Shown here: one piece after another, positions 18,390 to 63,768 of the stretch
Layout of the letters: every line of letters begins with the position of its first letter
Position numbering within the stretch: position 1 is the stretch's first letter
Assembly: GCA_964524845.1 (NCBI GenBank)
Contig: CAZGFX010000002.1
Location: 227,428-291,427, forward strand
DNA from: an uncultured Gammaproteobacteria bacterium
Lineage (GTDB): Bacteria > Patescibacteriota > Patescibacteriia > CAZGFX01
Direction of reading: 5' to 3'
Length of the DNA stretch: 64,000 nucleotides
Notes under the pieces: generated by a model
What the model was told of the DNA's origin: nothing
Database searches by the model: none
What the model saw: the letters and a program-made list of their open reading frames with translations, nothing else
Position numbers and translations under genes: made by a program

Positions 18390-18606
18390 AATATTATCAT
18401 CATAAGCTTACATTGTCATCCTGAACAATGTCATCCTGAACTAACTTTGTCATCCTGAACTAACTTTGTCATCCTGAACTCGTTTCAGGATCTATGTATC
18501 TGTTTCAGGATCTACCTTGATACATTGTATTTTAGTAAAATTTATTTCTCATATTATCAAAAGTTACACGGTAGATTCTGAAACGAGTTCAGAATGACAG
18601 TGTTGT
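18390..18606. repeat. MITE-like element copy A (repeat family 1)
   Basis: Tandem caatgtcatcctgaa units. Core flanked by TIRs gtcatcctgaactcgtttcag ... ctgaaacgagttcagaatgac. Near-identical core at 26110-26285 and 61231-61432. Confidence 0.6.
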
Positions 18607-21288: not shown

Positions 21289-21299
21289 ATGTATTATGA

Positions 21300-22433
21300 T
21301 TATTGATTTATGTCTTCTAATTTTTTATTATGTATCCTTCTTAATATAAATTCGCGAACAGCATCTCCGTTTTTATCAATACTAATCATACCACTAGAAC
21401 CTTTATAATTTTGAACTGAGTATAAATAATCCTTGATACAATCTGCTTTATAATTATCTTTGCAGTAAACAATACCATCGTATAACACATTATAAACATC
21501 ATAACCCAGTGTAGCAACCATTGTATCTTTTAAAGAAGTTCCGTATTTTTTCTCATAAGAACTAATTAGGTGTTGTGTCTCTGGGCTTTGTGTATCATAT
21601 TTATACATCGTAACGATCATGCCCTCAGCATCAGGATTGTCTGTAACAACACTCATACTAAAAGTTTCGTTTCCTATTATTTGTTTTTTAATTCCGAACT
21701 CTTTGGTCTGTTTGAGAACAATATTTTGTAACGCTGGAGTTAAAAATACATAAACCAAAGCATCTACGTCTTCGTTCTGTAGTTTTAATAATTGGCTTTT
21801 AACATCCGTGTCGGCTGAATTAACACTTTCTGAAACAATTGTATTTCCTGGGGTTTCCTTAAACTTCTTTTCAAAAACATCTTTCCAAGTAACAGAATAT
21901 TCATTCTTTTCGTAAAGAATACCTAGTTTTTTATATGAAAGTTTTTTAATCATTTCAGCAGAAACATCGGCACGTACTTCAGACGAAGCCGTTATACGAA
22001 ATACGTAATCTCCCGCTGTAGTTAAGTTCGGTGTAGCTGCAATTGGTGTAATTAAAATCACACGATTACTCTCTGCCAAAGGAGCAACAGCAAGAGTAGA
22101 GCTACTACACACTCCTGATATAAGAATTTTCACTTTATCAACATCTATAAGTTTTTGAGCGGCTGAAACAGCTTTTTTCGGATCACACATATCATCTTCG
22201 TATAAAACCTTAATTGTTTTACTTCCTATTTTTTGTTTTTCTTCCTCAGCAAGACGCAAAGAATTAACAGATTCTTCATATGCTCCCGCAAGAGGTCCTG
22301 TAAGAGGCCCAAAATATCCTATCTTTATCACATCAGAATTATTATCAGCTTTCTCATTCTTGAGCATCGCATACCCACCACCAATGATAACAAGCGCGAT
22401 AATTATATAAAGAATTGTCTTATTTGATTTCAT
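21300..22433 (-). CDS. LivK-type substrate-binding protein paralog
   Basis: First 22 aa and ~40 bp of upstream DNA identical to the 20155..21288 gene. Type I SBP fold motifs. Confidence 0.8.
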   Translation of the reverse strand: MKSNKTILYIIIALVIIGGGYAMLKNEKADNNSDVIKIGYFGPLTGPLAGAYEESVNSLRLAEEEKQKIGSKTIKVLYEDDMCDPKKAVSAAQKLIDVDKVKILISGVCSSSTLAVAPLAESNRVILITPIAATPNLTTAGDYVFRITASSEVRADVSAEMIKKLSYKKLGILYEKNEYSVTWKDVFEKKFKETPGNTIVSESVNSADTDVKSQLLKLQNEDVDALVYVFLTPALQNIVLKQTKEFGIKKQIIGNETFSMSVVTDNPDAEGMIVTMYKYDTQSPETQHLISSYEKKYGTSLKDTMVATLGYDVYNVLYDGIVYCKDNYKADCIKDYLYSVQNYKGSSGMISIDKNGDAVREFILRRIHNKKLEDINQ

Positions 22434-22444
22434 ATGTATTATGA

Positions 22445-23602
22445 TTATTGATTATTTTCGTATTTTATAATCTTTGAATCCTTAACTGTTTGCATCTCGA
22501 AACTATCTGGCGGCGTATCAACAAATCCATTTTGTTTAAAAGTAATTGATGTTAATGACACGCCCTGATAATTATTCGTTTTAGCAATGGCATCGCGAAG
22601 TATATCATTTCCCGCTAAATTTGTTTTCTCCAAAGCATCAGTAATAATTCCGACGGCATCATACGCGGTAATCGTACTCGGGAAAAGTACGTCCATTCCA
22701 TATTTTTGTTTGAATTTTTCATTAAATTCTATAAATCTTGACGAACGAACCGGAGCACTAAAATAAACATTTTCTAATTGTTTTGGGCATTGTGACAAAG
22801 AAACATCATTACCAGCGGCCTCAGTAGCTAACAGTGGTATCATAAGACCCATATCCTTCATTTGTTGTAATAAAGCGCATTCATTTATATCTCCAACCAC
22901 CATAAACAAAGCATCTGGTTTTGATTGTTTTATTTTCAAAAGATGAGTACGAAAATCCGTCACAAGCGGATTACCAAGATCAATATCCTCAACAATATTA
23001 ACTCCATAACTCGGAGCCCTCTCTACAAAAATATCATGTGTAAACTTCCAAAAACCACCATCAAACACACGCATCAAAGCGATGTTTTTCAAGTTCTTTT
23101 TCTTCGCAAAATCGAGAACGACATCAATACCAACTCTACTGTCATACCATGTTCCAAAAAGATATTCGTATGATTTTTGTGCTTCAACATTATCGGTGGT
23201 ATTGTGACCAATCATAGGAATCCGAGCCGCCTCAATCGCTGGAAGTATTGCTTCTGTGGGTTCGTCCCATTGTGCACCGACAATTGCTTTTACTTTATCG
23301 ACACTGATGAGTTTATTTGCAACAAGTCCGGCGTTTTTTAGCTTATCAATTGACAAGTCCTCTCCAATAAACTCAATTCTTTTTCCTTTTATACCTCCGT
23401 TGATATTAATTTCTTCGACTGCCAGTTCCGCGCCCCTTAACTCCTCAAGTCCCATTGATGCGCCGGCACCAGTCAAAGCAAACACTCCTCCTATTTTTAC
23501 TGTACCACTGTTCTGTCTTGATTGAAACAAAACATATCCTACAAAAACAATAATAATGATAATAACTGCGATTTTAAATATTCTATTACTTTTCATAATC
23601 AT
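22445..23602 (-). CDS. LivK-type substrate-binding protein paralog
   Basis: N-terminal TM anchor. VKIGGVFALTGAGAS...GIKGKRIE motif block. Confidence 0.8.
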   Translation of the reverse strand: MIMKSNRIFKIAVIIIIIVFVGYVLFQSRQNSGTVKIGGVFALTGAGASMGLEELRGAELAVEEININGGIKGKRIEFIGEDLSIDKLKNAGLVANKLISVDKVKAIVGAQWDEPTEAILPAIEAARIPMIGHNTTDNVEAQKSYEYLFGTWYDSRVGIDVVLDFAKKKNLKNIALMRVFDGGFWKFTHDIFVERAPSYGVNIVEDIDLGNPLVTDFRTHLLKIKQSKPDALFMVVGDINECALLQQMKDMGLMIPLLATEAAGNDVSLSQCPKQLENVYFSAPVRSSRFIEFNEKFKQKYGMDVLFPSTITAYDAVGIITDALEKTNLAGNDILRDAIAKTNNYQGVSLTSITFKQNGFVDTPPDSFEMQTVKDSKIIKYENNQ

Positions 23603-23614
23603 AAATTAAAAAGA

Positions 23615-24769
23615 TTATCCGTCATATCTCATGAACTTTCCATCTTTAACTGTCTTGAAGAAAATTTGCTTAATTGCATCACCATTTTCATCAATATCAA
23701 ATGTACCACTTGCACCCTTAAAACCTTTTGTTTCGTATAAACATTGTTTAACTGCATCAACATCATCTCCCTCAGCCTCAACGCATCCACTCAACAAATA
23801 TGCCGCATCATATGCGTTTGCCGCAACTGTGTCTGGTTCTGTGGAAAAACGCTCAACGTACTTAGAATAAAACCTCTTTACCGCCGGTGATTCGTCGTGA
23901 TTATCGTACGAATATGGATATAGAAGTCCTTCGGCATATTTTCCTGCGTTTTTCACTATTTCAGGACCTTCTGTTCCTAGATTATAAAATTGTGCATCAA
24001 TTCCAAGTTCACGCGCTTGTTTAAGAATAAGGCCGATTTGTTTGTTCCCTGCTATTGTAAAAATACTGGTCGGCTTTTGCGCTTTTAACTTTAATAATTC
24101 AGTTTTAAAATCAGTCGCCTTACTATCAAATTTTTCTATACTACCAATTGTTTTACCACTTGATTCAAAAACAGAACGAAACCTGTTTATATACGGATCA
24201 CTAATGGCTGTATTAATGGCAAGAAAATGAATTACACCTCCTTGCATATGCTTCGCCACGAAACGAGCTGATACAGGTGCCTCTTGTGCAACATTATGAA
24301 TAATTCTGAAAACATAATCTCCTGCTTGTGATATCTCATCTGTTTGAGCACTATGAGAAATCATAATTGTTTTTGATTGCTCTGCAATCGGAGCAACCGC
24401 CAACACTTCTGATGAATTATACGGACCAATAATATAATGGATTTTATCTAAATCAATAAACTTACGAACAGCACTTACAGCAACTTGTGGCTCATACCGA
24501 GTGTCTTCATACAGAAAATTAATTTTGTATTTGTTTTTTGTGTTTGAATTAATTTCTTCTTCCGCAATCGAAATTCCATTTTTTGTAAACTCACCAGCAT
24601 CTGCACGAACCCCGGTAAGAGGAGCAGGAATCCCAATTGTGATTGTCTTAGGATAATCTGGATCATGCCTCAACATAATGACATATCCTGTGACAATAAT
24701 AATCGCAATAATAATTATATATACAGTAATACTAGCCTTTTTTATATTCATATCTTGTTCGTTCAACAC
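23615..24769 (-). CDS. LivK-type substrate-binding protein paralog
   Basis: N-terminal TM anchor. ITIGIPAPLTG motif. Type I SBP fold. Confidence 0.8.
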   Translation of the reverse strand: MLNEQDMNIKKASITVYIIIIAIIIVTGYVIMLRHDPDYPKTITIGIPAPLTGVRADAGEFTKNGISIAEEEINSNTKNKYKINFLYEDTRYEPQVAVSAVRKFIDLDKIHYIIGPYNSSEVLAVAPIAEQSKTIMISHSAQTDEISQAGDYVFRIIHNVAQEAPVSARFVAKHMQGGVIHFLAINTAISDPYINRFRSVFESSGKTIGSIEKFDSKATDFKTELLKLKAQKPTSIFTIAGNKQIGLILKQARELGIDAQFYNLGTEGPEIVKNAGKYAEGLLYPYSYDNHDESPAVKRFYSKYVERFSTEPDTVAANAYDAAYLLSGCVEAEGDDVDAVKQCLYETKGFKGASGTFDIDENGDAIKQIFFKTVKDGKFMRYDG

Positions 24770-24789
24770 TCATATTTTATTACTTTTAA

Positions 24790-25180
24790 GCCAAAAAGCA
24801 ACTACCAAAAAACCTTGTATAAAACAAGTTTCCACTAATCCTTCTCGTAATTTTCCCTTCTCGTAATTCGTTCACCCTGTGAAATAAGATTTGAGCCTTC
24901 TTTTAATAAACATCTTACCATAAAAAGTCTTTAAATACTTTTCTCTTCGTGTGGCATCCTGTTGATTAAGACAAACCTCAAAATAAATAAGTTTTAAAGG
25001 TCTTCTCTCTTTTGTTGATGGTATTAACCCTTTATTATGTCGCTCAAATCTTAACTTCAAATTTTTTGTATACCCAGTATACATCTTATTATCTTTTTTA
25101 CTCTTTAATACATATGTATAAAACATATAATAATTGTTTTATATAAAAAATTTGGAGTTATTTCACAGGGTAAATTTATA
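24790..25180. mobile_element. TIR-bounded element carrying a GIY-YIG nuclease gene (repeat family 2, putative autonomous copy)
   Basis: Inverted repeats ttcaccctgtgaaataa (24871-24887) and ttatttcacagggtaaa (25158-25174) bracket the GIY-YIG ORF. Same TIRs and flank occur without the ORF at 19875-20150. Solo TIRs at 18328, 26043 and 56985. Confidence 0.5.
24872..25126 (-). CDS. GIY-YIG nuclease family protein (YhbQ/UPF0213-like, 84 aa)
   Basis: MFYTYVLKSKKDNKMYTGYTKNLKLRFERHNKG matches the GIY-x10-YIG...R...E..H core. Conserved downstream E in LIYFE. Confidence 0.8.
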   Translation of the reverse strand: MFYTYVLKSKKDNKMYTGYTKNLKLRFERHNKGLIPSTKERRPLKLIYFEVCLNQQDATRREKYLKTFYGKMFIKRRLKSYFTG

Positions 25181-26042
25181 ATTTATATTCTCCTTTAAGT
25201 CCTTGTGGGCGATATATCATAAGAAAAACAAGAAGTGCTCCATATACCACCTGTCGCATCTGTGCCGCTATATCGGTTGGAAATCCAACAAAACGCATAA
25301 TTTCCGGTAACAAAATAAGAAACAAGGCACCAAGAAGCGATCCTTCTAAATTAGCAAGACCGCCTAAAATAATTATCGCTAATATAAAAATAGATTCCGG
25401 AAGCGCGAATGTCGACGGATCAATAAATGTAATATAAGAAGCAAAAAGAGCTCCGGCAATTGCGGCCATACCCGCCGATATCATAAAAATAACAAGTTTA
25501 TACTGCAGTGTGTTATATCCGAAAACTTGTAACGCTTTTTCGTCATCACGAATAGCTTTGAGAGCGCGTCCAAACGATGACTTGGTAACATATCGCGCAC
25601 ATATATATACAATGATCATGAATAACGCACTTAAAACAAGAAACGTCAGATTATCACGAAAAACAAATCCGAATATCTCCGGTCTTCCTATTCCTGGAAT
25701 ACCGAGCGGGCCTCGAGTAAGATCCTGCCAGTTCAATAAAATACTAAACACAATAACATTGAAACCAAACGATGCAAGAGCATAATAATCTGATTCAAAT
25801 TTGCTCATAACGAATCCAATTAGAAAGCTCACCGCCATCGAGAGAATGATACTGAATATAACAGCAACAAAAAAATTAACACCGAGCTCAGTCATCAGAA
25901 TTGCCGATGCATACGCACCAACACCATAAAAAGCCGCGTGCGTTACTGACAAAAGCCCTGTATATCCTACGACCAAATTCAAACTTATACCAAGTATGGC
26001 ATATATTGTGAAAAGTATCGCTAAATGTATTAAATATTCCAT
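25176..26042 (-). CDS. livM: branched-chain amino acid ABC transporter permease (LivM-type)
   Basis: 8-10 TM helices. Permease family motifs (GLLSVTHAAFYGVGAY). Confidence 0.8.
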   Translation of the reverse strand: MEYLIHLAILFTIYAILGISLNLVVGYTGLLSVTHAAFYGVGAYASAILMTELGVNFFVAVIFSIILSMAVSFLIGFVMSKFESDYYALASFGFNVIVFSILLNWQDLTRGPLGIPGIGRPEIFGFVFRDNLTFLVLSALFMIIVYICARYVTKSSFGRALKAIRDDEKALQVFGYNTLQYKLVIFMISAGMAAIAGALFASYITFIDPSTFALPESIFILAIIILGGLANLEGSLLGALFLILLPEIMRFVGFPTDIAAQMRQVVYGALLVFLMIYRPQGLKGEYKL

Positions 26043-26109
26043 TTACCCTGTGAAATAAGGTTTTTTTAATTCGTAATTCAAACTTTTTTATTGTACTACA
26101 TTAAAAGAA

Positions 26110-26285
26110 CATTATCATCTTAGATTGACCTTGTCATGTTGAACATTGTCATCCTGAACTGACCCTGTCATCCTGAACTCGTTTCAGGATCTACCTTGAT
26201 ACAATGTTTTCTAGGAAAACTTATAACACATATTATCAAAAGTTACACGGCAGATGCTGAAACGAGTTCAGCATGACATTGTGGC
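26110..26285. repeat. MITE-like element copy B (repeat family 1), followed by cgtaattc short tandem repeats to 26343
   Basis: Same TIRs and core as 18390-18606. Occupies the livH-livM intergenic spacer. Confidence 0.6.
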
Positions 26286-26343
26286 GTAATTCGTAATTAT
26301 TCTTCCCTCTCGTAATTTTCCCTTCTCGTAATTCGTAATTGTA

Positions 26344-27258
26344 TTACTTCTTTTTAAATATTCCCGATGGTCTGAAGAGAAGGAAAACGATAAGCACCCC
26401 AAATGCAATAGCGTCTTTCCACTCGCCGGATATCTTCCAAATACCGAAGTTCTCTATAAATCCGAGAAGCATCGCTCCAGCAAAACCTCCGTATGTATTT
26501 CCAACACCTCCGATAATTGCCGCGATGACACCCTTGAGAAGCAGTGCCATACCCATCGTAGGTTCAAGTCCCGTGTCAAACCCAACAAGTGCACCAGCAA
26601 GTCCGGCAATGGCCGAACCGATAATAAATACAATCGATATTATTTTATTGACATTGATACCAACCACTTTCGAAACCTCCTGATCATCGCTTACAGCACG
26701 AATAGCATATCCGATTTTTGTCTTTTTCAAGAAAATTACAAGTCCTCCCATAATCAACGCCGCGCACACCAACATGATCAATTGTATTTCTGTAATAACA
26801 CCTCCAAAAATAGTATATACTTTATTTTCTGTAAGTGATGTCGAGAGTGTCTGAAATTGACTTGTAAACAAAATCGCTATGATCGCCTGAATTGCCGTAA
26901 AAGCACCGAGAGATGCGACAAGATACACCATGAGAGACGCTTTTCGCGAACGAAGTTGTCTATATATGGACACCTCAAGTCCCCATCCGATCATGGCGGC
27001 AAGAACAACACCAAGAATGACGCTTGGAATGATACCAATCTCCGTATTTTTAATGAAAAACAATGCGGTATAACCACCAACAGCAGCCAGCACCCCGTGT
27101 GCCAGATTAAAAAACTTGGTCGTATTGTACGTCAAATTAAAACCAAGAGCCACGAGCGCATAAATCGCGCCGGCAATAATACTATTGACTGTAAGTTGAA
27201 TGACTATATCCACATGGCTTATTATAGCGAAAATACGAAATAAATCAAAAACACCCAA
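26344..27258 (-). CDS. livH: branched-chain amino acid ABC transporter permease (LivH-type)
   Basis: 304 aa, 8 TM. LivH-like motif GFNLTYNTTKFFNLAHG. Confidence 0.8.
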   Translation of the reverse strand: MGVFDLFRIFAIISHVDIVIQLTVNSIIAGAIYALVALGFNLTYNTTKFFNLAHGVLAAVGGYTALFFIKNTEIGIIPSVILGVVLAAMIGWGLEVSIYRQLRSRKASLMVYLVASLGAFTAIQAIIAILFTSQFQTLSTSLTENKVYTIFGGVITEIQLIMLVCAALIMGGLVIFLKKTKIGYAIRAVSDDQEVSKVVGINVNKIISIVFIIGSAIAGLAGALVGFDTGLEPTMGMALLLKGVIAAIIGGVGNTYGGFAGAMLLGFIENFGIWKISGEWKDAIAFGVLIVFLLFRPSGIFKKK

Positions 27259-27290
27259 TTAATGTTCGAGTGTTTTTTGATTATAATAAT

Positions 27291-28391
27291 TTATTTTACA
27301 GGGATCTGCTTTCCGTTTTTAATTTCATAAACACTTGCACGAGATATTACAATTCCGTCCTTATCAACAGAAAGAGGTCCTAAAACTCCTTCAAAATTCG
27401 TAATTTCTTGAAGTGCTTTTGCTATTTCACCAGTTGACGGATAATGATCTTTTCCGACTTTTTCTGTAGAATAGACAAACAAATTAAATACATCATATGT
27501 ATTCGGTGCACCAGGAGTAACTTCCTTATTAAATTCAGAATTAAATTTATTTCTAAATTCATCTGTTGCATTTGCGGCATCAACATACCAACATCCTTCA
27601 ATTAACTCTTTTTGATTTGAAAAAGAAAAAGCCTCAATAGACGTCAGTGGAGTTGTAATTCCAAGATCTTTTATTTGTTTAGTAATTATTTCCAGTTCTG
27701 GAGAAAAAGCAAGAATATATATAATATCAGGATTTTTCTGTTGTATTCTAGTAATTATCGTTTTAAAATCTTTTTCTCCACTGTTATACCATTCGCTTTG
27801 AACGATAGATATATCAGTATCTTTCAAATGTTCTCTGATTTCGTCATCGATGGCTTTCGCTCCTTGTTGATTCAATGCAATTGTTGCAATCTTTTTTATG
27901 CCTCTTTTTTTAAATTCTTCTACAACAAGTTTTGCTTCTTCTGATGGAGGTGTCCAATGCATAAAATTATATTCTCCTTTTGCTATATTTGCATCAGACG
28001 CAATACCAAAATGCACCACTTTATTCGTCTCAGCAACTGGTGTAACAACATTTCCACTTCCTGAAGTAAATGATATAACAGCGCTTACCTTATCAATATT
28101 TATTAACTTATTAACAGCGCTTGCTGTCATTTTTGGATTAAGTTGATCATCTTCATAAACAACATCATATTTATATTTTGTTGTCTTTTTGTCTTTCATA
28201 GCAAGTGTTAAAGAATTTTTAACACCTTCACCAAGATGTGCCATATCACCGGTCAATGGAAGAATTACTCCTATCTTTATCGTCTCCTGTTTATCGTTTT
28301 GTGATGTCTTGTTTGTTGTAATAGTATATACCGCTCCTACAACAACCAAAACAGCTACCACCCAGACTAGAATTTTGTTTTGTTTCGACAT
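27291..28391 (-). CDS. LivK-type substrate-binding protein paralog
   Basis: N-terminus MSKQNKILVWVVAVLVVVGAVYTITTNKTSQNDKQETIKIGVI identical to the 30808..31944 gene. Type I SBP motifs. Confidence 0.8.
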   Translation of the reverse strand: MSKQNKILVWVVAVLVVVGAVYTITTNKTSQNDKQETIKIGVILPLTGDMAHLGEGVKNSLTLAMKDKKTTKYKYDVVYEDDQLNPKMTASAVNKLINIDKVSAVISFTSGSGNVVTPVAETNKVVHFGIASDANIAKGEYNFMHWTPPSEEAKLVVEEFKKRGIKKIATIALNQQGAKAIDDEIREHLKDTDISIVQSEWYNSGEKDFKTIITRIQQKNPDIIYILAFSPELEIITKQIKDLGITTPLTSIEAFSFSNQKELIEGCWYVDAANATDEFRNKFNSEFNKEVTPGAPNTYDVFNLFVYSTEKVGKDHYPSTGEIAKALQEITNFEGVLGPLSVDKDGIVISRASVYEIKNGKQIPVK

Positions 28392-28412
28392 ATAAAAGAA
28401 TTATTATCGATT

Positions 28413-29561
28413 TTATTTATAAATTTCCGGTATTCCATTTCGAATAATTTTAACAACATGCCCTCCAATACGATCACCATCCGCACCTATTTCTACAAGA
28501 CCAGAAGCGCCTTTCCAGTCTTTGACAGATCTGAACCATGCAGCAATTTTAGAAGTGTCAGTACCGACCGCCTTAATAGCGTCACGAATCATATATACAG
28601 CGTCATATTCCGTCTGTCCGTAACTCTGATATGGCATCTCTTTTCCAAATTGTTTTTGATATTCATTAATAAAATTTTTAAATATAGAATTAGTAGGATC
28701 GACACCAAATTCAGCTGCAAAAGCTCCTTCAAGAGCACTTTTATTACGTTGAACCATCTCATTTGCACCTGACACAGCGTCAGACACAATAAGAGATGGC
28801 TTCCAACCTAAATCGGCCATTTGTTTAAAAATGCGATCAGCTGCGGCCGGAGTTTGTGGAACAACGAATAATGCATCTGGGTTCTCATTGCGCAACTTAG
28901 TAAGAATAGTCTTAAAATCAGTAACAGTCGAAGGGAATTCTTCTTTTACTACTGTTCCGCCAAGTTCAGAAAATTTATTATTGAAAGCATTGTATATACC
29001 AAGAGCATAGTCGGTTTGTTCCTGAATAAATGCTATCTTCTTCCATTGTTTATTTGTGTATGCTAATTGAGCAAGTGTTGATCCTTGTGTCGCATCACTT
29101 GGATAATTTCGAACAAAATAATCACTTATTCCGGTCAGTGCTGGACTACTTGACCCAGCAGAAATCATAAATACTTTATTTTCCAGAGCAATTGGAACAG
29201 CGGATAGCGATTCACTACTGCAAAATCCCCCAATAATAATTTTTACTTTATCAACAGTAATAAGTTTTGACGCGGCGTTTGCACCATCTTTGCCACTACA
29301 CTTACCGTCTTCTACTATGAGGTTTATTTTCTTTCCGTTAATACCTCCTGATGCATTAATCTCGTTAACTGCCATTTGATATATATTACGAGCCGGTTCA
29401 CCATAAAAAGCCGCGTCTCCTGACAATGGCACTATTACTCCTATCTTTATCGTCTCCTGTTTATCATTTTGTGATGTCTTGTTTGTTATGATTGTGTACA
29501 CAGCACCTACAATCACAATTATCGCCACAATCCATACTAAAACATTATTTCGTTTACTCAT
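28413..29561 (-). CDS. LivK-type substrate-binding protein paralog
   Basis: Near-identical N-terminal 45 aa to the neighbouring paralogs. SBP fold. Confidence 0.8.
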   Translation of the reverse strand: MSKRNNVLVWIVAIIVIVGAVYTIITNKTSQNDKQETIKIGVIVPLSGDAAFYGEPARNIYQMAVNEINASGGINGKKINLIVEDGKCSGKDGANAASKLITVDKVKIIIGGFCSSESLSAVPIALENKVFMISAGSSSPALTGISDYFVRNYPSDATQGSTLAQLAYTNKQWKKIAFIQEQTDYALGIYNAFNNKFSELGGTVVKEEFPSTVTDFKTILTKLRNENPDALFVVPQTPAAADRIFKQMADLGWKPSLIVSDAVSGANEMVQRNKSALEGAFAAEFGVDPTNSIFKNFINEYQKQFGKEMPYQSYGQTEYDAVYMIRDAIKAVGTDTSKIAAWFRSVKDWKGASGLVEIGADGDRIGGHVVKIIRNGIPEIYK

Positions 29562-29675
29562 AGATTAATTAATTATACCTAAATATTACTCTCTATCTCT
29601 GTCGAAAATCAAGTTTTTATCAACAAAAAAAACGTTAAAAAACCAGGCTTATTACAATTAAAATAAGTTATTAAT

Positions 29676-30779
29676 TTATGGTTTTTTTTCAAGCAATACT
29701 TGCTTTCCGTCTCTTATCTCATATACATCAGCCTTTGAAACAACTATCCCATCTGTATCTATCGTGAGAGATCCCATAGCTCCAGAAAAATCTTTGATTA
29801 TATGAAGATTTTTTATTATCTCATCCGCGGTTGGACGATTGTTTGTTTTTACGTTCTCAATCGCATACACAAGTAATTTTATTATATCGTATGAATTTGG
29901 CGCACCTTGAGTGATTGTTGTTTTGTATGTATTTTCATATAATTGTTTGAATTGTAGTGACGGATCTCCAGCATCAACATACCAACTTCCTTCAAGTAAT
30001 TCTTTGTTCTTTGCCCATGAAAACGCTTCAATCGAAGTAAGTGGTGTGGTAATTCCTAAATCTTTAATTTGTTTTATAACAAGCTCGAGTTCTGGAGAAA
30101 AAGCCTTAATAGATATTATATCTGGATTTCCTTTTTGTGCTTTAAGAATAACCGTTTTAAAATCAGTATCTCCTTTCATAATCAACTCATCTCCGACTAT
30201 TTCAATATCAGTTTTTTTAAGATATTCGTTTGCCGCAGAATGAGTTGCCAACGCGCCCTGTTGATTTAAAGTAATTGAAGATATTTTCTTTATTTCTCTT
30301 TTTTTCAACTCTTCTACAAATAATTTTGCTTTTTCAGCAGGGGGTGTCCAATGAATAAAATTATATTCTCCTTTGGCAATATTCGCATCATTTGCAATGC
30401 CGAAATGAATAATTTTATTCGTCTCAGCTATCGGAGCAATAACATTTCCACTTCCTGAAGTAAACGATATAACCGCATCAACCTTATCTATATTGATAAG
30501 CTTATTGATTGCTGAGGCGGTTTTTTTTGGATCAAGCTGGTCATCCTCAAATATGAGTTCATATTTATAATGTGTGTTTTTTATTGAATCATAAGCCAAA
30601 AGAACACCATTTCGAACACCTTCTCCAAGCGAAGCCATGTTCCCACTCAAAGGAGCGATAACTCCTATTTTAATTATATTATTATTTTCTAAATCTTTTT
30701 TTGTCGCGACAATATAAATTCCACCAACAAAAAATAGACATATCACGATCCATATGATAATTTTATTTTCTTTTGACAT
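29676..30779 (-). CDS. LivK-type substrate-binding protein paralog
   Basis: N-terminal TM anchor. IKIGVIAPLSGNMASLGEG motif. Confidence 0.8.
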   Translation of the reverse strand: MSKENKIIIWIVICLFFVGGIYIVATKKDLENNNIIKIGVIAPLSGNMASLGEGVRNGVLLAYDSIKNTHYKYELIFEDDQLDPKKTASAINKLINIDKVDAVISFTSGSGNVIAPIAETNKIIHFGIANDANIAKGEYNFIHWTPPAEKAKLFVEELKKREIKKISSITLNQQGALATHSAANEYLKKTDIEIVGDELIMKGDTDFKTVILKAQKGNPDIISIKAFSPELELVIKQIKDLGITTPLTSIEAFSWAKNKELLEGSWYVDAGDPSLQFKQLYENTYKTTITQGAPNSYDIIKLLVYAIENVKTNNRPTADEIIKNLHIIKDFSGAMGSLTIDTDGIVVSKADVYEIRDGKQVLLEKKP

Positions 30780-30807
30780 AAAAAATATTATTAATATCGA
30801 TTATTTT

Positions 30808-31944
30808 TTATTCATTTAATTTAATAAACGTTCCGTTTTCTAATTTCATTAATTGAACATCTCTTCTTGCTTCTCCGTTTTCATCGAAATCTATTTTTCC
30901 TCCCGCACCAACGTAATTGTGTGTTTCATATAAAACATTTTTTATTTTTTCTGTATTATAACCGACTTTTTTTACAATATTTATAATAATTTTAAAAGCA
31001 TCATAACCATTTATAGAATAAATTCCTGCGTTTTCGCCATATCTTAATTTATATATATTATTGAAATCTGTGTAAAAAGGGTTATTTTCATCTATTCCTT
31101 CATTAGCAATAATTGTTCCTTCGCTTGAATTTTTAGCTTGTTTATATAAATCATCTGATTTTAAAGAAGATATGCCAAACCACGTCGGCTTCAGTCCTAA
31201 CTCAATGGATCTATTAAAAAAAGTTGCGGCTTGTTCAACAAGCAAAACAGTAAACACTGCGTCTGGGTTTTTTTCTTTTAAACTTAATGCTTTTGTTCTT
31301 AGGTCCATATCTCCTATTTGCAATAAATCACGTGCGATCAACTGTACTCCCATTGCAGAAAGCCTTTCTTCAAACGCATTAATATATGGTAAACCCGCTT
31401 CGTTATTCATTGCAATTGCAGCCACTCTTTTATAACCCTTTTTTTGTATATAATCAGCGATCGCATTTGCCTCGAAAGTCCCATTAACTCGATTTCTAAA
31501 AATAAAATCACCAGCATTGGTAATAGAAGGACTTGATGCAAGTGAAACAAAAAGAAGAACCTTGTTTTCATTTGCAATAGGTGCCATCGCCATAACAGAA
31601 CTACTCCCTGTTCCTGTAATAATTACTTTTACTCTATCAACCGATATTAGCTTTTGAAGTGCGCTAACAGAAGTTTTTGGATCACTTTTTCCATCTTCTA
31701 TTAATATTTGTATATTTTTTCTTACGCCATTTGATTTGTTCTCATTTTCAAAAGCTATTTCAATTCCATTTTTTACCCACCCTCCATATAATGACATTGG
31801 TCCTGTCAAATCTGCTATAACACCAATTTTTATAGTCTCTTGTTTATCGTTTTGTGATGTCTTGTTTGTTGTGATAGTATATACCGCTCCCACAACAACC
31901 AAAACAGCTACCACCCAGACTAGAATTTTGTTTTGTTTGGACAT
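30808..31944 (-). CDS. LivK-type substrate-binding protein paralog
   Basis: 5' ~130 nt identical to the 27291..28391 gene. SBP fold. Confidence 0.8.
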   Translation of the reverse strand: MSKQNKILVWVVAVLVVVGAVYTITTNKTSQNDKQETIKIGVIADLTGPMSLYGGWVKNGIEIAFENENKSNGVRKNIQILIEDGKSDPKTSVSALQKLISVDRVKVIITGTGSSSVMAMAPIANENKVLLFVSLASSPSITNAGDFIFRNRVNGTFEANAIADYIQKKGYKRVAAIAMNNEAGLPYINAFEERLSAMGVQLIARDLLQIGDMDLRTKALSLKEKNPDAVFTVLLVEQAATFFNRSIELGLKPTWFGISSLKSDDLYKQAKNSSEGTIIANEGIDENNPFYTDFNNIYKLRYGENAGIYSINGYDAFKIIINIVKKVGYNTEKIKNVLYETHNYVGAGGKIDFDENGEARRDVQLMKLENGTFIKLNE

Positions 31945-32036
31945 AAAAATAATTATTTATTCTGTACTTATAATACTCCTTATTTTAAGGAAATTTCAAG
32001 GAAACACGAACACATATAATTATCTACTCGATACTT

Positions 32037-33035
32037 TTATTCAATCTCGATCGCCTTCCCATTCTCAATCTTTTTTAACCGAATAGGTCTTTTCATTACT
32101 CCATTCTCATCAAATTTACCTGATGAAACAATCGTGTCGCGAACACAGTCATATTTTCCACTGCATTTTTTTACAACTTCTCCCATAATCTCGGCCGCTT
32201 CTTTTGAAATATGAAAAATTCCACCATCGCCTGTATTTGGTAGATCGGCCGGAAAAGAATAAATTACACCCTCCACAAAATCACGCATCGCTGGAAGTTC
32301 GGTGGTGTATTGAGAGTATATCGGCGCAGCCACACCGAGCCTCCTCAACTTATTAATTCCATCAGCAAAGAAAAAAGCAGCATCAGCCACAAATATCGCA
32401 TCAGGCTGCGCCGCACGAATTTTGAGAAGTTCAGAAGAAACATCAGCACCATTATCTGCAAACCAAGACTCGTGCGCAATTTCTCCGGAATAATTTTTTC
32501 TGAAAGAATCCGCATGTGTCCTAGAAAAAGCATTCTCATAAGCGACTAGCGCGACACGCTTCATCCCTAGTTCGAACATCTTACGCGCCAAGAAACTTGA
32601 TTCATCTTCGAGAGAATAATGCATATTAAACATATTTCCTCCGCTTGATGAGAAAAGATTTTTAGACGCGGCGGAAGGCACTATACTCAAAATCTTTTTG
32701 TCTTTCAGAAGCGTTGCGACAACTTCTTGTGGCGACCCGCATGCAGGACCAATAACAAAAGAAACATTATCGAAATCAACGAGTTTTCTAAATGCGCTTA
32801 TTGCGGTTTTTGGTTCGCACTTTTCGTCTTCGAACACAAACTCCACACCATCAAATGAAACAGAAGACACTCCTCGACGAATCTCTTCCCCATACTTTGC
32901 AAAAACATCACTAAGAGGAGCTATTACTCCAATTTTCATATTTCCGTCTGTGTGAGTCGTATTATAAACAAAAAATCCTGCTACAATAAAGAGGCATAAG
33001 ACAACAAACAATATTAATTTTCCTAAAGTTGTCAT
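32037..33035 (-). CDS. LivK-type substrate-binding protein paralog (first gene of liv operon)
   Basis: Track ORF starts at a TTG (33068). First ATG gives MTTLGKLILFVVLCLFIVAGFF as TM anchor. MKIGVIAPLS motif. Confidence 0.75.
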   Translation of the reverse strand: MTTLGKLILFVVLCLFIVAGFFVYNTTHTDGNMKIGVIAPLSDVFAKYGEEIRRGVSSVSFDGVEFVFEDEKCEPKTAISAFRKLVDFDNVSFVIGPACGSPQEVVATLLKDKKILSIVPSAASKNLFSSSGGNMFNMHYSLEDESSFLARKMFELGMKRVALVAYENAFSRTHADSFRKNYSGEIAHESWFADNGADVSSELLKIRAAQPDAIFVADAAFFFADGINKLRRLGVAAPIYSQYTTELPAMRDFVEGVIYSFPADLPNTGDGGIFHISKEAAEIMGEVVKKCSGKYDCVRDTIVSSGKFDENGVMKRPIRLKKIENGKAIEIE

Positions 33036-33043
33036 AAATATAT

Positions 33044-33078
33044 AAAAAAGCAAAAAACCGCCGACCAAGGGCGACGGA
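33044..33078 (-). terminator. putative terminator after rplU
   Basis: GC-rich imperfect hairpin ccgccgacc..gggcgacgg followed by UUUUUUGCUUUUUU on the minus transcript. Confidence 0.35.
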
Positions 33079-33383: not shown

Positions 33384-33480
33384 ATATATAGTATTAAAGT
33401 GAACGCGTGCATAATAGCAAAACCAAGCCAAAAGTCAATAGTGAAAAAGCATTTCAACTAATGGTCGAAGCGAAGTAAAA

Positions 33481-33620
33481 TATATAGGATGAGACCTCTT
33501 CCTGACATACGTCAGGACAGGCTCCTCCGGTCGAGGTGACAATTTCCGCAAGGCGGGATCCCGCTTTGCGGTGGGTTGAGCCAAGTGAATGTGCCTGTAC
33601 TGAGCAGAACGAATGTGCCA
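33481..33620. repeat. GC-rich palindromic repeat unit (family 3), copy 1, in the rplU 5' leader region
   Basis: ggatgagacctcttcctgacatacgtcaggacaggc...tcgaggtgacaa, shared with 56711-56812. Strong palindrome ccgcaaggcggga/tcccgctttgcgg. Far more GC-rich than the surroundings. Confidence 0.5.
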
Positions 33621-56195: not shown

Positions 56196-56257
56196 CTTGA
56201 CTCTATTATATAATTACTCTATTATAATACCATTAATTCGAGGTTTGAAGAAAGTCT

Positions 56258-56488
56258 ATGGCAAAAAAATCAGAGCTTACAGGCAAAAAACCGCGTACGA
56301 TGAATCAGCGGAGCCACTCAATGAACGCAACAAAGCGCGTACAGGGTATTAATTTACAGACGATTCGGGTCGAGGGAAAAAAAATATGCGCTACCGCACG
56401 CGAGATAAAAGCGATAAAGAAAATGCTTGCTGAGAATATTCCATTCTCAAAAATCAAGAAAATGTATAACAAGGCTGTTATAGCATAA
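56258..56488 (+). CDS. rpmB: 50S ribosomal protein L28
   Basis: MAKKSELTGKKP..NQRSHSMNATKR L28 pattern. 76 aa. Confidence 0.85.
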   Translation: MAKKSELTGKKPRTMNQRSHSMNATKRVQGINLQTIRVEGKKICATAREIKAIKKMLAENIPFSKIKKMYNKAVIA

Positions 56489-56508
56489 TCGCAACACGTA
56501 CACGCCAC

Positions 56509-56538
56509 AGACAGGATCTCTCCTGTCTTTTTGTTTTG
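56509..56538 (+). terminator. rho-independent terminator after rpmB
   Basis: agacagga-tctc-tcctgtct 8-bp stem followed by TTTTTGTTTTG. Confidence 0.6.
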
Positions 56539-56710
56539 CAATAATTAGAAACGTGTCGAAGACACGTGTCAAAGAAATGAAAAACAACCCCGCAAAGCGA
56601 TAGCGTGCGGGGTATGTAGAGATATTTTTGGATGAAAAGGATAAGCGACTTGTTCGAGAGAACATAAAAATCATATGAATTATAATGCGAACAGAAGTGC
56701 TCGCGTTAAA

Positions 56711-56812
56711 GTGGATGAGACCTCTCCCTGACATGCGTCAGGGCAAGCATATTCGTTCGAGGTGACAAAGTTGGTCGAGGTGACAAGTCCCGCCGAGCGT
56801 CAGCGATGACGG
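56711..56812. repeat. GC-rich palindromic repeat unit (family 3), copy 2
   Basis: ggatgagacctctccctgacatgcgtcagggcaagc...tcgaggtgacaa, shared with 33481-33620. Confidence 0.5.
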
Positions 56813-56820
56813 GATATTAA

Positions 56821-56984
56821 CAATGTCATCCTGAACAATGTCATCCTGAATAATGCCATCCTGAACAATGTCATCCTGAACAATGTCATCCTGAACAATG
56901 TCATCCTGAATTTATTTCAGGATCTATGTATCTGTTTCAGGATCTGTGTATCTATTTCAGGATCTGTGTATCTGTTTCAGGATG
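56821..56984. repeat. tandem arrays of 6 x 15 bp (caatgtcatcctgaa) then 3.5 x 20 bp (tttcaggatctgtgtatctg); arms mutually complementary
   Basis: Direct reading. Units are the same motifs that form the family-1 MITE termini. Followed by a solo family-2 TIR at 56985-57005. Confidence 0.7.
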
Positions 56985-57529
56985 AAATTATTTCACAGGG
57001 TAAATTCATAATTTTTCTAAAATCAAAAACCCCGTAGCAAAAAATAACTAGATAAATATGCTACGGGGTTCAACCTATACCTATATACACGTCTGAGATA
57101 CGTATTACTATCTATACGAATAAGCTTTTGGATGAGGATTTGGGATTCGATCAGTTAGCCTCCATCTTTTTATGTGTACAAAATCTTTTCGACATTGGAA
57201 GTTTTCGGATCTTATGAAATAAGTTCTCGGACCTCCTTATGTGCCTAAAAACGATTTTGTAACGTGCCTATATATCGCCCGCATAGGAAGTTTAGTACAC
57301 GAACGAAACAATGGCATAAGTAAATATTGCTTGAAAAGTAACCACGGATTCCAAATGCACTCATCCACTATAGGTTTACGCCCACTTACAAAAAATTACA
57401 AATGAGAAAATCACCGTTTTGTACCCTGTTATGCACTTCTTATTTTTCCGCTAAAATAACATCTTTTAAAACAAGTTTATAATCATTATTTAACGAATAA
57501 AAAAAACAAACAGGAGAATTTAGTAGGGT

Positions 57530-57690
57530 GATTATCCCCGGGAAATACCGAGGCACCGGTATAAGGCAGTGTTAGCCGCCTGATACTGGCGATCGCCTCA
57601 TGTGGCCGCAAAGCATGGTCTAAGACCACACAAACTTTAAGCCGCCAATCAACGATGTTGTAGAGAAATCACAGTTCTAAATCAAATCCT
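57530..57690. ncRNA. candidate structured non-coding RNA (unidentified)
   Basis: Locally GC-rich, hairpin-rich segment inside a ~960-bp region (56735-57692) with no ORF >=60 aa on either strand. Identity not established. Confidence 0.2.
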
Positions 57691-57912
57691 GTTTGCACTT
57701 AAAGTATACACCTTCCAGTCTGTTTTTTAAGATCGGGAAAATCCCTATTTTCAGTCATTGTTCAAAAGTTATCCACCTTGTGTTTTTTTTTTGCTTAAAT
57801 ACACGCTTTTCCAATATAAAAACTCGAAAAGTCTCTGTTTTGACCAATTTATATAAATCCGTTATCATCTACCATACTATTATCATATTAATTAAGTTAA
57901 AAAATCGAGTAT

Positions 57913-60894: not shown

Positions 60895-60915
60895 GCGGGT
60901 ATTTTTCTACTGATA

Positions 60916-60924
60916 TTATCCACA
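60916..60924. promoter_or_regulatory. perfect DnaA box TTATCCACA
   Basis: Direct reading. Confidence 0.4.
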
Positions 60925-60948
60925 TTACAAAACACCCTCAAGCGCCGT

Positions 60949-61110
60949 CGGTGGATAAACTAGCGCCGCCTGCCCTTCTCTTGCGAAGCAAGAGATAGGG
61001 TCGGTGGATAAACTAGCGCCGCCTGCCCTTCTCTTGCGAAGCAAGAGATAGGGTCGGTGGATAAACTAGCGCCGCCTGCCCCCTAGCGAAGCGAGGGACC
61101 TTACTGAGCG
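60949..61110. repeat. 3 x 53-bp GC-rich tandem repeat, each unit with a DnaA-box-like GGTGGATAA and a ctcttgc-gaa-gcaagag hairpin
   Basis: Units begin at 60949, 61002 and 61055 (third degenerate). 20-bp sub-repeats ccttactgagcgaagcgagg x2 at 61097-61135. Confidence 0.7.
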
Positions 61111-61189
61111 AAGCGAGGAACCTTACTGAGCGAAGCAAGAGATAGGGTCTGTTGATAAACCCTCTCACCATACACAAAACAAACCTCAT

Positions 61190-61207
61190 ATATCCACTTG
61201 TGGATAA
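61190..61207. promoter_or_regulatory. head-to-head DnaA-box palindrome ATATCCACT / TGTGGATAA
   Basis: tatccacttgtggata perfect inverted repeat. TGTGGATAA (61199-61207) matches the consensus exactly. TGTTGATAA at 61150-58. Confidence 0.4.
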
Positions 61208-61230
61208 AAAAACAGCTCGTAAAGCTGTTT

Positions 61231-61432
61231 ATGTCATCCTGAACCATGTCATCCTGAATTTATTTCAGGATCTATATATCTGTTTCAGAATCTTCCTTGA
61301 TACATTGTGTATTATGTCATTCTGAACTTGTTTCAGAATCTTCCTTGATACATTGTTTTCTAGGAAAACTTATATTTCATATTATTAAAAGTTACACTGC
61401 AGATGCTGAAACGAGTTCGGCATAACGCAATG
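61231..61432. repeat. MITE-like element copy C (repeat family 1, with internal 40-bp duplication)
   Basis: Same termini and core as 18390-18606 and 26110-26285. Confidence 0.6.
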
Positions 61433-61459
61433 ATTATCTTTCTATAAAAAATCAAAAAA

Positions 61460-62017
61460 TTATTTTTTATATTGTTCGATAATCGCATCTATATTCTTTT
61501 CAAAATCTTCTATTGTTCCGTTGTTATCAACGATGCATTGCGAAACATCTTTCAAACCCCGAATCTGTACTTCCGTTTCTTGTAATTGTTCTTTTTCAAA
61601 TTGCTCAAATGTTTTTGTACTATCGCCGACATTTTCTCCACGCGCAACAAGTCGTTCATATCTTTTTTTAACATCGGTTTCAATATATACAAGCATAAAA
61701 CTAGGGAGCATCTTTAAATATTTTATATCAGCATTTCTCCTTACTCCATCAATTACGATTATTTCATGTGAATCGTGTTCAGCGTCCTGAGACATTACTT
61801 TTGCCAAAACATCATCTCCAAAATTTGCGCGCAAAACCGTCGATAGAGTTTGTAGATTATCTCTGCTTTGCTCAATATACAATCTATCCAGAACATCTCT
61901 CAGCATCGTTGAAAACCGATGTGTATGAGCACCATACTTTTCAACACAATACTTTGTAAAAGTTCCTTTTCCACTCGCGATCTCACCCGCTAATCCAATT
62001 ATTATTTTGTTTGCCAT
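61460..62017 (-). CDS. P-loop nucleotide/nucleoside kinase-like protein
   Basis: Walker A GLAGEIASGKGT. Small kinase fold with LID-like DGVRRNAD. Specific substrate not assignable. Confidence 0.45.
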   Translation of the reverse strand: MANKIIIGLAGEIASGKGTFTKYCVEKYGAHTHRFSTMLRDVLDRLYIEQSRDNLQTLSTVLRANFGDDVLAKVMSQDAEHDSHEIIVIDGVRRNADIKYLKMLPSFMLVYIETDVKKRYERLVARGENVGDSTKTFEQFEKEQLQETEVQIRGLKDVSQCIVDNNGTIEDFEKNIDAIIEQYKK

Positions 62018-62029
62018 AATAATATATAT

Positions 62030-62527
62030 TTACTTTCCCTGATCAGCGTACTCTGTAACCCTATTATTAAGAAGTTCATATAAAACACCAGCTTCTTTAA
62101 AAACTTCCTTGCTTCTCTGTCCTGCGTGATAATCCTCCTCACACACGACACGTTTAATTCCGGCGTTAATAATCATCTTCGCGCACGCATAACACGGAGT
62201 CATCTTGCAATACAATGTAGCTCCTTCTAACGCGACACCAATTCTTGCCGCTTGAATAATCGCGTTCTGCTCAGCGTGAGCCGTTCTTATACAATGACGT
62301 GTTTCGTGATTATCCTCGTGTACGACGGTGTGCATCTCATGACCCACCTCATCACAATGAGGGAGTCCGACTGGAGAACCAACATATCCGGTTGATATAA
62401 TTCTCTTGTCCGAAGTGATCACGCACCCTGAGCGTCCTCGATCACATGTTCCGCGCGAACCGATAATTTTAACTATCTCCATAAAATACTCATCCCATGA
62501 CGGTCTTTTGTATTTTTCCTCTTCCAT
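62030..62527 (-). CDS. dCMP deaminase (ComEB-like cytidine/deoxycytidylate deaminase)
   Basis: HAEQNAI and PCYACAKMII zinc-ligand motifs. Confidence 0.8.
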   Translation of the reverse strand: MEEEKYKRPSWDEYFMEIVKIIGSRGTCDRGRSGCVITSDKRIISTGYVGSPVGLPHCDEVGHEMHTVVHEDNHETRHCIRTAHAEQNAIIQAARIGVALEGATLYCKMTPCYACAKMIINAGIKRVVCEEDYHAGQRSKEVFKEAGVLYELLNNRVTEYADQGK

Positions 62528-62669: not shown

Positions 62670-63768
62670 TTACACCTTGTCCCATTTCAAATACGCCTCG
62701 ACGAATTCTTCGATTTTCCCATTGAGCACTCCTTCCGTATCATTCGTCTCATATCCTGTGCGAACATCCTTTACAAGCTGGTACGGATAAAGTACGTACG
62801 ATCTTATCTGACTTCCCCACTCAGTCGATTTTCGTTCTCCGCGAACTCCTCGCTCTCTATCACGACGCTTCTCATATTCCAAAATCTTGAGCTTTGATTT
62901 CAAAACATTCATCGCGGTTTCTTTGTTTTGTGTTTGTGATCGTTCATTCTGACATGTAACGACAATTCCTGTAGGAATATGATTGATTCGTACGGCGGAA
63001 TCAGTTGTGTTCACTCCCTGGCCACCGTGTCCGGACGCACGATAAACATCAATTCGGATATCTTTATCTTCTATTACAATATCGGATACGAGTCCGAAGT
63101 CGGGTATTACTTCGATTTGTGAAAAAGATGTGTGACGAGCCTTATCAGCGTCAAAAGGCGATATTCGTACAAGTCTATGAACACCTGATTCCGAACGGAG
63201 ATTCCCATATGCCTTATCTCCTTTAACTGTAAAAGAAACATTTTTTATTCCCGCCTCAAGCCCTCTGCTAGTATCAATAATTTCCGTAGTATATCCTTTT
63301 CTTTCACAGTATCGAAGCATCATTCGAAGTAATATCTCAGTCCAGTCCTGTGCTTCCGTCCCGCCCGCTCCTGCCTGTATATTTACTATGGCATCATAAT
63401 GATCGAACTCACCCGTGAAAAGCGCCTGCACCTCAACAACATGCAGGAGCGGGCGGATTTTTTCAATTGCTTTTTCTAGGTCACTTATATCATTACTCTT
63501 TTCCATTTCAATAATATCACATATATCACGAGCATCTGCACATTCTTTTTCTAGCAAAGCGAAATCGGCCAGGTCTTTTTTTATTCCCGCCGCATATTGT
63601 GTACGCGCAACCGCTTTTTTCGGATCGGCCCAGATCTCCGATCCTCCAAATTCTTTCTCTAATTCAACAAGCTCTCTCCTTTTTCCTTCAACGTCAAAGT
63701 AAGTGAGCGAAGTCTTTTACTCTTTGCTCGATTAATTCTAATTGTTTCTTTGCTTCGTAAAGTTCCAT
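62670..63768 (-). CDS. prfB: peptide chain release factor 2, expressed via programmed +1 frameshift
   Basis: SPF tripeptide and GGQ motif. 0-frame ATG 63768 encodes MELYEAKKQLELIEQRVKDFAHLL, then in-frame TGA inside CTT TGA C at 63694-63699. +1 frame continues DVEGKRRELVELEKEF... to 62670. Confidence 0.85.
63694..63699 (-). promoter_or_regulatory. RF2 autoregulatory +1 frameshift site CUU UGA (C)
   Basis: Exact canonical shifty sequence at codon 25. Confidence 0.8.

Follow-up and report, generated by a model that had tools for sequence, protein, structure and literature searches.

A DnaA-box-bearing tandem repeat upstream of comEC in an uncultured member of the Patescibacteria: a candidate non-origin DnaA-box cluster

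Do the DnaA-box-like motifs gathered upstream of comEC in this genome mark the replication origin, a secondary site at which the initiator would bind, or a spacer filled with repeat DNA? Judging from the labels of its best ComEC homologues, the genome belongs to an uncultured bacterium of the Patescibacteria. The window, i.e., the whole stretch of DNA that was analysed, is 64,000 nucleotides long, and the cluster lies within a 565-bp gap (60895–61459) between two genes of the minus strand, a kinase-like gene upstream and comEC downstream. Following the minus strand in the direction of transcription, the gap contains a MITE-like copy, a terminator, an inverted pair of boxes, a partial repeat unit, a 22-bp repeat, a 53-bp repeat and a perfect box, after which comEC starts (Table 1).

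Table 1. Features of the gap upstream of comEC and of the neighbouring genes (positions are those of the window).
Feature	Position	Strand	Remarks
Nucleoside-diphosphate kinase, 197 aa	57913–58506	+	profile match
ComEC C-terminal MBL-domain ORF, 291 aa	58596–59471	−	overlaps the channel ORF by 35 nt
comEC N-terminal part, 485 aa	59437–60894	−	DUF4131 + Competence; Pfam PF03772, 5.9e-54
Candidate sigma-70-type comEC promoter	60913–60941	−	−35 TTGAGG (60941–60936), 17-nt spacer, −10 TAATAT (60918–60913)
Perfect DnaA box TTATCCACA	60916–60924	+	22 nt before the comEC ATG, outside the tandem repeat; motif scan
53-bp tandem unit GTCGGTGGATAAACTAGCGCCGCCTGCCCTTCTCTTGCGAAGCAAGAGATAGG, ×2.5	60947–61081		100% identity; Tandem Repeats Finder
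DnaA-like box TTATCCACC, 1 mismatch (GGTGGATAA on the + strand)	60950–60958	−	53-bp unit 1; motif scan
DnaA-like box TTATCCACC, 1 mismatch	61003–61011	−	53-bp unit 2; motif scan
DnaA-like box TTATCCACC, 1 mismatch	61056–61064	−	53-bp unit 3; motif scan
22-bp sub-repeat AGCGAAGCGAGGAACCTTACTG, ×2.4	61085–61136		three further GCGAAGC motifs; Tandem Repeats Finder
Degenerate closing partial unit GCGAAGCAAGAGATAGGGTCTGTTGATAAAC	61130–61160		94% identical to the unit junction; carries the 61150–61158 box
Box TTATCAACA (+ strand TGTTGATAA), 1 mismatch	61150–61158	−	inside the degenerate partial unit
Inverted box pair, 0 bp apart	61190–61207		ATATCCACT (61190–61198, +, 2 mismatches) and TGTGGATAA (61199–61207, −, perfect)
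Intrinsic-terminator-like hairpin AAACAGCTTTACGAGCTGTTT + T-run	61210–61230	−	ends the upstream ftsA...kinase unit; fold z −5.7
MITE-like element copy	61231–61425		GTCATCCTGAA repeats and a ~125-bp core with inverted ends; neighbour, outside the box cluster
P-loop nucleoside/nucleotide-kinase-like gene	61460–62017	−	next gene upstream; profile match
ComEB-like dCMP deaminase	62030–62527	−	precedes the kinase-like gene; profile match

Seven DnaA-box-like 9-mers are present in 292 bp (60916–61207): two are perfect, four have one mismatch and one has two. All seven align on nGTGGATAA, the core of the DnaA box. An earlier note on this DNA had listed the sites at 60916, at 61199 with its palindrome, at one position per 53-bp unit and at 61150, and every one of them was found where it had been placed. 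The consensus boxes at 60916 and 61199 bracket four near-consensus boxes; the former is also seen in an independent Logan contig (L001). Of the seven, about 4–5 are independent sites: three boxes are copies of one duplicated unit, and the 61150 box belongs to a fourth unit, partial and degenerate. Both perfect boxes, as well as the inverted partner, lie outside the duplicated 53-bp unit and are therefore independent of the duplication.

The pair at 61190–61207 forms the inverted repeat TATCCAC-TT-GTGGATA, and abutting half-sites of this kind are typical of helix-turn-helix dimers. The motif could thus belong to another protein, a dimeric transcription factor that would recognise the 18-bp TTATCCAC-AA-GTGGATAT and the GTGGATAAAC direct repeats and control comEC. 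The half-site is, however, exactly the core of the DnaA box, and two of the sites match the DnaA consensus at 9 of 9 positions.

As the earlier note had estimated, less than one perfect box is expected per 64 kb (0.75–0.79 by our calculation); two were found, and there are no others in the window. Chance was evaluated with 1000 first-order Markov simulations of the window, in which boxes with at most one mismatch were counted in the densest 300 bp. Four such boxes per 300 bp were reached in only 2 of the 1000 simulations, and the locus has six, or four with the repeated unit counted a single time. In 4 simulations out of 1000, two perfect boxes fell within 300 bp of each other. Taken over the whole window, boxes with no more than one mismatch show no enrichment (25 found versus ~21 expected), but 6 of these 25 are concentrated in the 292 bp of the locus. 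The cluster is real and non-random.

These figures can also be read in another way, in which the spacer is a functionless accumulation of repeats (a complex minisatellite beside a MITE-like element) with fortuitous box-like 9-mers, and DnaA has no meaningful role. A probability of ~0.002–0.004 per window is not extreme when many windows are scanned. Tandem duplication has multiplied one box, and the T-run of the terminator helps to make another: it extends into the perfect box at 61199–61207, which shares its TT. On the other hand, the two perfect boxes that lie outside the repeat, the inverted partner and the box of the unit are jointly much rarer than either simulation statistic.

How often boxes are carried by tandem repeats was seen in a control scan of 185,579 species genomes for GGTGGATAAAC-N30-60-GGTGGATAAAC (41–71 bp spacing). 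It returned 47 loci, ~32 of which are coding heptad repeats (FEQVDKR) and 15 unrelated non-coding tandem arrays. Unrelated GGTGGATAAAC arrays are thus found in many phyla and in ordinary gene contexts (mfd, dinB, glycosidase), which is what a functionless repeat would look like. The 15 non-coding control arrays carry GGTGGATAAAC in each of their units. However, in none of them do the 250 bp to the left and to the right contain a perfect DnaA box, and this argues against the functionless reading. What is distinctive at the locus is not the repeat-borne boxes alone, it is their combination with independent consensus boxes on both flanks.

Two arrays from Phocaeicola / Caecibacteroides genomes (L029, 1372–1474, and L036, 4265–4367), consist of 46-bp non-coding tandem repeats with an abutting inverted pair, TTATCTACC|GGTGGATAA, in each unit. 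The pairs have the same 0-bp head-to-head geometry as that at 61190–61207, and the repeats adjoin glycoside hydrolase genes.

The boxes had been described as embedded in GC-rich 53-bp tandem repeats, and this description holds: Tandem Repeats Finder returns the 53-bp unit in 2.5 copies, and the array has a GC content of 58%, versus 37% in the window, of which it is the longest GC-rich island. Each unit consists of one DnaA-like box and an imperfect GC-rich hairpin centred on GCGAAGC; the hairpin folds of the array have z values of −2.7 to −3.6. The 22-bp sub-repeat, which the same description had missed, folds no better than shuffled sequences (z +1.8). The five GCGAAGC motifs of the locus are all on the plus strand. 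By simple arithmetic, a period of 53 bp is close to five helical turns, and the three boxes of the units should therefore face the same side of the helix. The order of the boxes in the array is box, spacer, box, spacer, box, long spacer, box: because the closing partial unit holds a box, the array both starts and ends with one. This partial unit differs from the full units at only two positions, both of them within the box.

The perfect identity of the 53-bp copies indicates a recent duplication. The short-read assembly of Logan (L001 and L002) confirms the edges of the region only, up to position 60976 and from 61334 on, and breaks inside the repeats, so that the number of 53-bp copies is that of the MAG assembly alone. 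Perfectly identical copies accompanied by complex sub-repeats point to recent slippage, again in line with a functionless repeat. The 53-bp unit is not demonstrably dispersed, as it occurs at a single locus in 75 kb, and this weighs on the other side: no other copy was found in the 75 kb available, nor any in the rest of the window with up to 3 mismatches allowed. Likewise, an exact 21-mer of the unit had no match in metagenome or viral collections. The 58-aa ORF that runs across the array, used as a probe for homologous repeats called as genes, had no match among predicted proteins. BLAST of the array against plasmids and phages gave no meaningful match, the only one being a chance-level alignment of 47 bp in its AT-rich edge.

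Two familiar kinds of repeat were considered and rejected. The array is not a CRISPR, since whole 53-bp units are identical and the "spacers" would hence be identical too. It is not the iteron origin of a plasmid or phage either: its units are 53 bp long, it lies between a kinase gene and comEC, there is no rep gene nearby, and no similarity to plasmids or phages was detected. The term "iteron-like", which had been applied to the repeats, is therefore misleading, all the more so as the copies are 100% identical and stem from a recent duplication.

The array might also act as RNA, either as a 5' leader of comEC or as a small RNA. GC-rich islands often mark RNA genes in AT-rich genomes, and this one is the longest of a window with 37% GC; its folds are more stable than those of shuffled sequences (z about −2.8 on either strand). 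No Rfam family was detected with covariance models, at the gathering threshold or at a permissive one, and identical tandem copies followed by 22-bp sub-repeats with a z of +1.8 are unlike a single structured RNA. Overall, a motif that has nothing to do with DnaA, whether the site of a dimeric regulator or a structured RNA, seems to us quite unlikely.

The proposal that the locus is oriC-like deserves a separate discussion. Its density of boxes is that of an origin (six to seven in 292 bp, two at consensus), dnaB is 47 kb away, and genes for ribosomal proteins and ftsAZ, which are often close to the origin in bacteria, are in the neighbourhood. Nevertheless, the locus is not the replication origin. 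The earlier note suggested examining the whole genome for a minimum of the GC skew at this position. Across the window, the GC skew of the plus strand is negative throughout (−0.13, −0.17, −0.22 and −0.22 in the bins that flank the locus), and its cumulative curve is monotonic. The sign of the skew and the orientation of the genes are still the same 10.7 kb past the end of the window, on an overlapping Logan contig (run SRR12133403) which carries co-oriented genes for signal peptidase, hisS, ybeY, ftsA, ftsZ, prfB, deaminase and kinase. There is no change of coding strand at this point, the genes on either side (ftsA-ftsZ-prfB-deaminase-kinase before it, comEC-MBL after it) being all on the minus strand. 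Negative skew and gene co-orientation extend over 61 kb to the left of the locus and 13.5 kb to its right. The sign of the skew implies that the replication fork crosses the locus from right to left and that the origin is therefore more than 13.5 kb further to the right.

The other elements of an origin are missing as well. The DNA up to 300 bp from the boxes contains no run of three or more DnaA-trios, and none of the boxes has an AT-rich unwinding element next to it. The AT-rich stretch that had been noticed beside the boxes is nothing special, the flanks having 60–72% AT for a window mean of 63%; an AT content of 88% is reached in one patch only, which is where the kinase gene ends, 230 bp off, behind the MITE-like element and the terminator. 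There is no dnaA or dnaN among the 30 ORFs scanned with Pfam, which extends to the 75 kb examined the earlier remark that these two genes are not adjacent, and no site with fewer than 3 mismatches to parS was detected in the same region. It is thus extremely improbable that the locus is oriC, or one half of a bipartite origin.

Comparison with other genomes brings a last argument against an origin and two of a different kind. The scan of genome contigs with ComEC returned no close relative, the best homologue being 39% identical. The order prfB ... comEC-MBL ... ndk ... rpsL-rpsG-fusA is found again in two distant relatives (L003 and L005). Their gaps upstream of comEC measure 32 and 220 bp and contain no box cluster, so that relatives devoid of the cluster share the gene order across the site, which is not expected of oriC. 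This conserved order also shows that the MAG has no misjoin at the repeats and that the site is not one of rearrangement. The absence of both the gap and the boxes in relatives is, conversely, one more point in favour of a functionless repeat.

The genes that surround the locus form a comE-like nucleotide-salvage group, as their profile matches indicate: a ComEB-like deaminase, a kinase, a ComEC split in two and a nucleoside-diphosphate kinase. In terms of the NCBIfam model ComEC_Rec2, the channel ORF covers positions 80–366 and the MBL-fold ORF positions 435–663; the same split into two genes is observed in distant relatives. Upstream of comEC, the candidate promoter matches the sigma-70 consensus at 8 of 12 positions and was recognised by eye, below the threshold of the scan (9 of 12), so that it is a matter of inference only. 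The perfect box at 60916–60924 overlaps it, in the predicted −10 element and spacer.

Two genes of this neighbourhood have peculiarities of their own. The nucleoside-diphosphate kinase matches its profile in two stretches (~1–52 and 57–178), which suggests an insertion relative to typical enzymes of ~140 aa. The gene of release factor 2, prfB, appears to have the classical programmed +1 frameshift site CTT TGA C (63768–63690 of the window, minus strand): a short upstream frame runs from the ATG at 63768 into ...CAC TTA CTT TGA CGT..., and the main ORF (62670–63557) matches the PCRF profile only from position 50.

The reading that we favour is that the locus is a lineage-specific secondary cluster of DnaA boxes, which would bind DnaA so as to titrate it, to regulate comEC, or both; we give it a probability of about one half. 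Titration of DnaA is plausible, being compatible with all the findings, and it is the best interpretation available, the binding itself being putative. Several arguments favour a DnaA-box cluster. Four boxes remain when the tandem copies are counted once, a number that 2 of 1000 simulations reached; the only perfect boxes of the 64 kb lie within 300 bp of each other; none of the 15 control arrays is flanked by a perfect box; the setting is intergenic, between a terminator and the start of a gene; and the surrounding genes belong to a comE-like nucleotide-salvage group.

The three phased boxes stem from a recent tandem duplication, probably caused by slippage or by an unequal exchange involving two direct-repeat boxes that were already there; exchange between such boxes would fit an array that starts and ends with a box. 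DnaA would bind the two high-affinity boxes and spread cooperatively across the weaker, phased ones. A nucleoprotein complex of ~290 bp would then form, with the terminator of the ftsA-ftsZ-prfB-deaminase-kinase unit on one side and the comEC start on the other. Such a complex could keep DnaA from oriC, in the manner of datA and of the DnaA-box clusters of Bacillus subtilis. It could also modulate the promoter of comEC, whose predicted −10 element and spacer are overlapped by the proximal perfect box. DNA uptake and nucleotide salvage would thereby be tied to the status of the initiator, as ribonucleotide reduction genes (nrdAB) are in E. coli through their control by DnaA. Past the presence of the motifs, each of these steps is one that we infer.

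Some observations call for restraint. The cluster is not conserved (the best ComEC homologue is 39% identical, and the two distant relatives have no cluster), which tempers the reading as a DnaA-box cluster. The phased arrangement is young, since the 53-bp copies are 100% identical, and it may be neutral. Both differences of the closing unit fall inside the 61150 box, which is unlike the result of purifying selection. Regulation of comEC has to be regarded with caution because its promoter matches at 8 of 12 positions, was read by eye and is missing from the results of the scan. Finally, the gap holds a dispersed MITE-like repeat and there are other GC-rich dispersed repeats in the genome, the window included, so that the spacer does accumulate repeat DNA, in line with the functionless reading. 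That reading is a serious contender, although we consider it doubtful.

The other repeats of the window are worth describing for themselves. Full MITE-like copies are found at 18413–18600, 26131–26280 and 61231–61425, and partial arrays at 56819–56990. Their layout is a series of tandem GTCATCCTGAA(C) repeats followed by a core of ~125 bp with inverted ends, TGTCATCCTGAACTCGTTTCAG ... CTGAAACGAGTTCAGCATGACA. The three full copies have a column identity of 81%, the 11-mer occurs 20 times versus 1.1 expected, and two of the copies are inside a Liv-type ABC-transporter operon. Two GC-rich intergenic islands on the plus strand (33480–33560 and 56705–56790) have in common a core of ~60 nt, GGATGAGACCTCTYCCTGACATRCGTCAGGRCA...TCGAGGTGACAA, which includes a hairpin and has no match in Rfam; they may correspond to a small RNA or to another dispersed repeat.

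Elsewhere in the window, the region 56200–57900 is an unusually long stretch (~1.7 kb) of mostly non-coding DNA. It includes a patch with 55–57% GC (57510–57648) that has no Rfam match and, seen by eye, a possible small ORF at about 56259–56488 on the plus strand; this stretch may hold an unannotated RNA gene. A long run of ORFs of similar size, ~343–385 aa, occupies 20155–33068 on the minus strand. All three that were scanned (20155–21288, 23615–24769 and 32037–33068) are Liv-type periplasmic binding proteins (Peripla_BP_6), which suggests that the run is a tandem family of substrate-binding proteins around ABC-transporter genes.

Whatever the function of the locus, the window should not be annotated as containing oriC. 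If DnaA does bind, the locus would be a first in the Candidate Phyla Radiation, for which we know of no other candidate secondary DnaA-box cluster and in which, to our knowledge, the control of replication is essentially unstudied; among the papers listed by a literature search on Patescibacteria and oriC or DnaA boxes, none dealt with the topic. Patescibacteria with reduced genomes are thought to use the DNA-uptake channel to scavenge nucleotides, and the favoured reading, if true, would link the initiator to this channel. In its most far-reaching form, a tandem-amplified, lineage-specific array would let the initiator of an ultra-small Patescibacteria genome control ComEC and so couple the import of DNA for nucleotide supply to the replication cycle, while changes in the number of 53-bp copies would tune the titration of DnaA. 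We regard this full scenario as unlikely. The perfect tandem duplication shows how clusters of boxes could quickly gain or lose sites. If DnaA does not bind, the locus is only a repeat-rich spacer, and a caution that box counting alone over-calls origins.

Several known systems resemble the locus in part. The MIRU of mycobacteria are intergenic minisatellites of ~46–101 bp dispersed at many loci. Like them, the array is a tandem repeat of ~50 bp between co-oriented genes, the copy number of which is likely to vary; in contrast with them, its unit is seen at one locus only, and the sequences are not related. Bacterial origins have dense DnaA boxes in common with the locus, which differs from them by the lack of a strand-bias switch, of an unwinding element, of DnaA-trios and of dnaA or dnaN nearby.

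DnaA is also a regulator of transcription, which controls its own gene, dnaA, and, in E. coli, nrdAB. A passage of PMC13438810 presents it as a transcription factor at the promoter of the gidAB-parAB operon of P. aeruginosa. The arrangement upstream of comEC is similar to that of DnaA-regulated promoters, in that a box overlaps or adjoins the promoter of a gene for DNA or nucleotide supply, but the promoter is here only a candidate, with a weak match to the consensus.

The core of DARS1 and DARS2 of E. coli consists of oppositely oriented DnaA boxes, one of which is a full consensus; boxes I and II are 5 bp apart and box III is closely adjacent (PMC6868365). An inverted pair in which one box is at consensus is present at the locus too. 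A DARS was nevertheless rejected on the basis of its geometry, the boxes of the pair being 0 bp apart and the next one 40 bp away.

Closer in concept is datA of E. coli, which lies outside the origin, contains about five DnaA boxes of high affinity and lowers the pool of initiation-competent DnaA (PMC3245932). Both are clusters of boxes outside the origin, in unrelated phyla and with unrelated sequences. The datA locus acts with IHF and promotes the hydrolysis of the ATP bound to DnaA.

The nearest parallel is found in B. subtilis. Okumura et al. (2012, PMC3245932) described intergenic DnaA-box clusters outside oriC, which bind DnaA, regulate the neighbouring genes and restrain initiation; examples are yydA-yycS, ywcI-vpr and yqeG-sda, mostly close to the origin and bound by DnaA in vivo. 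That study describes no cluster built, as the locus partly is, of an exactly repeated 53-bp unit with GC-rich hairpins as spacers, and its clusters are known to bind DnaA in vivo whereas the locus is known from its sequence. In both cases, consensus and near-consensus boxes are grouped in intergenic DNA beside ordinary genes, and the dual role of the B. subtilis clusters is the one proposed here. Non-origin DnaA-box clusters are recognised by the presence of several boxes, at or near consensus, that share a few hundred bp of intergenic DNA away from oriC, and the gap upstream of comEC contains such a group. The locus is therefore provisionally filed with them, most likely as another member of a kind already known in other bacteria.
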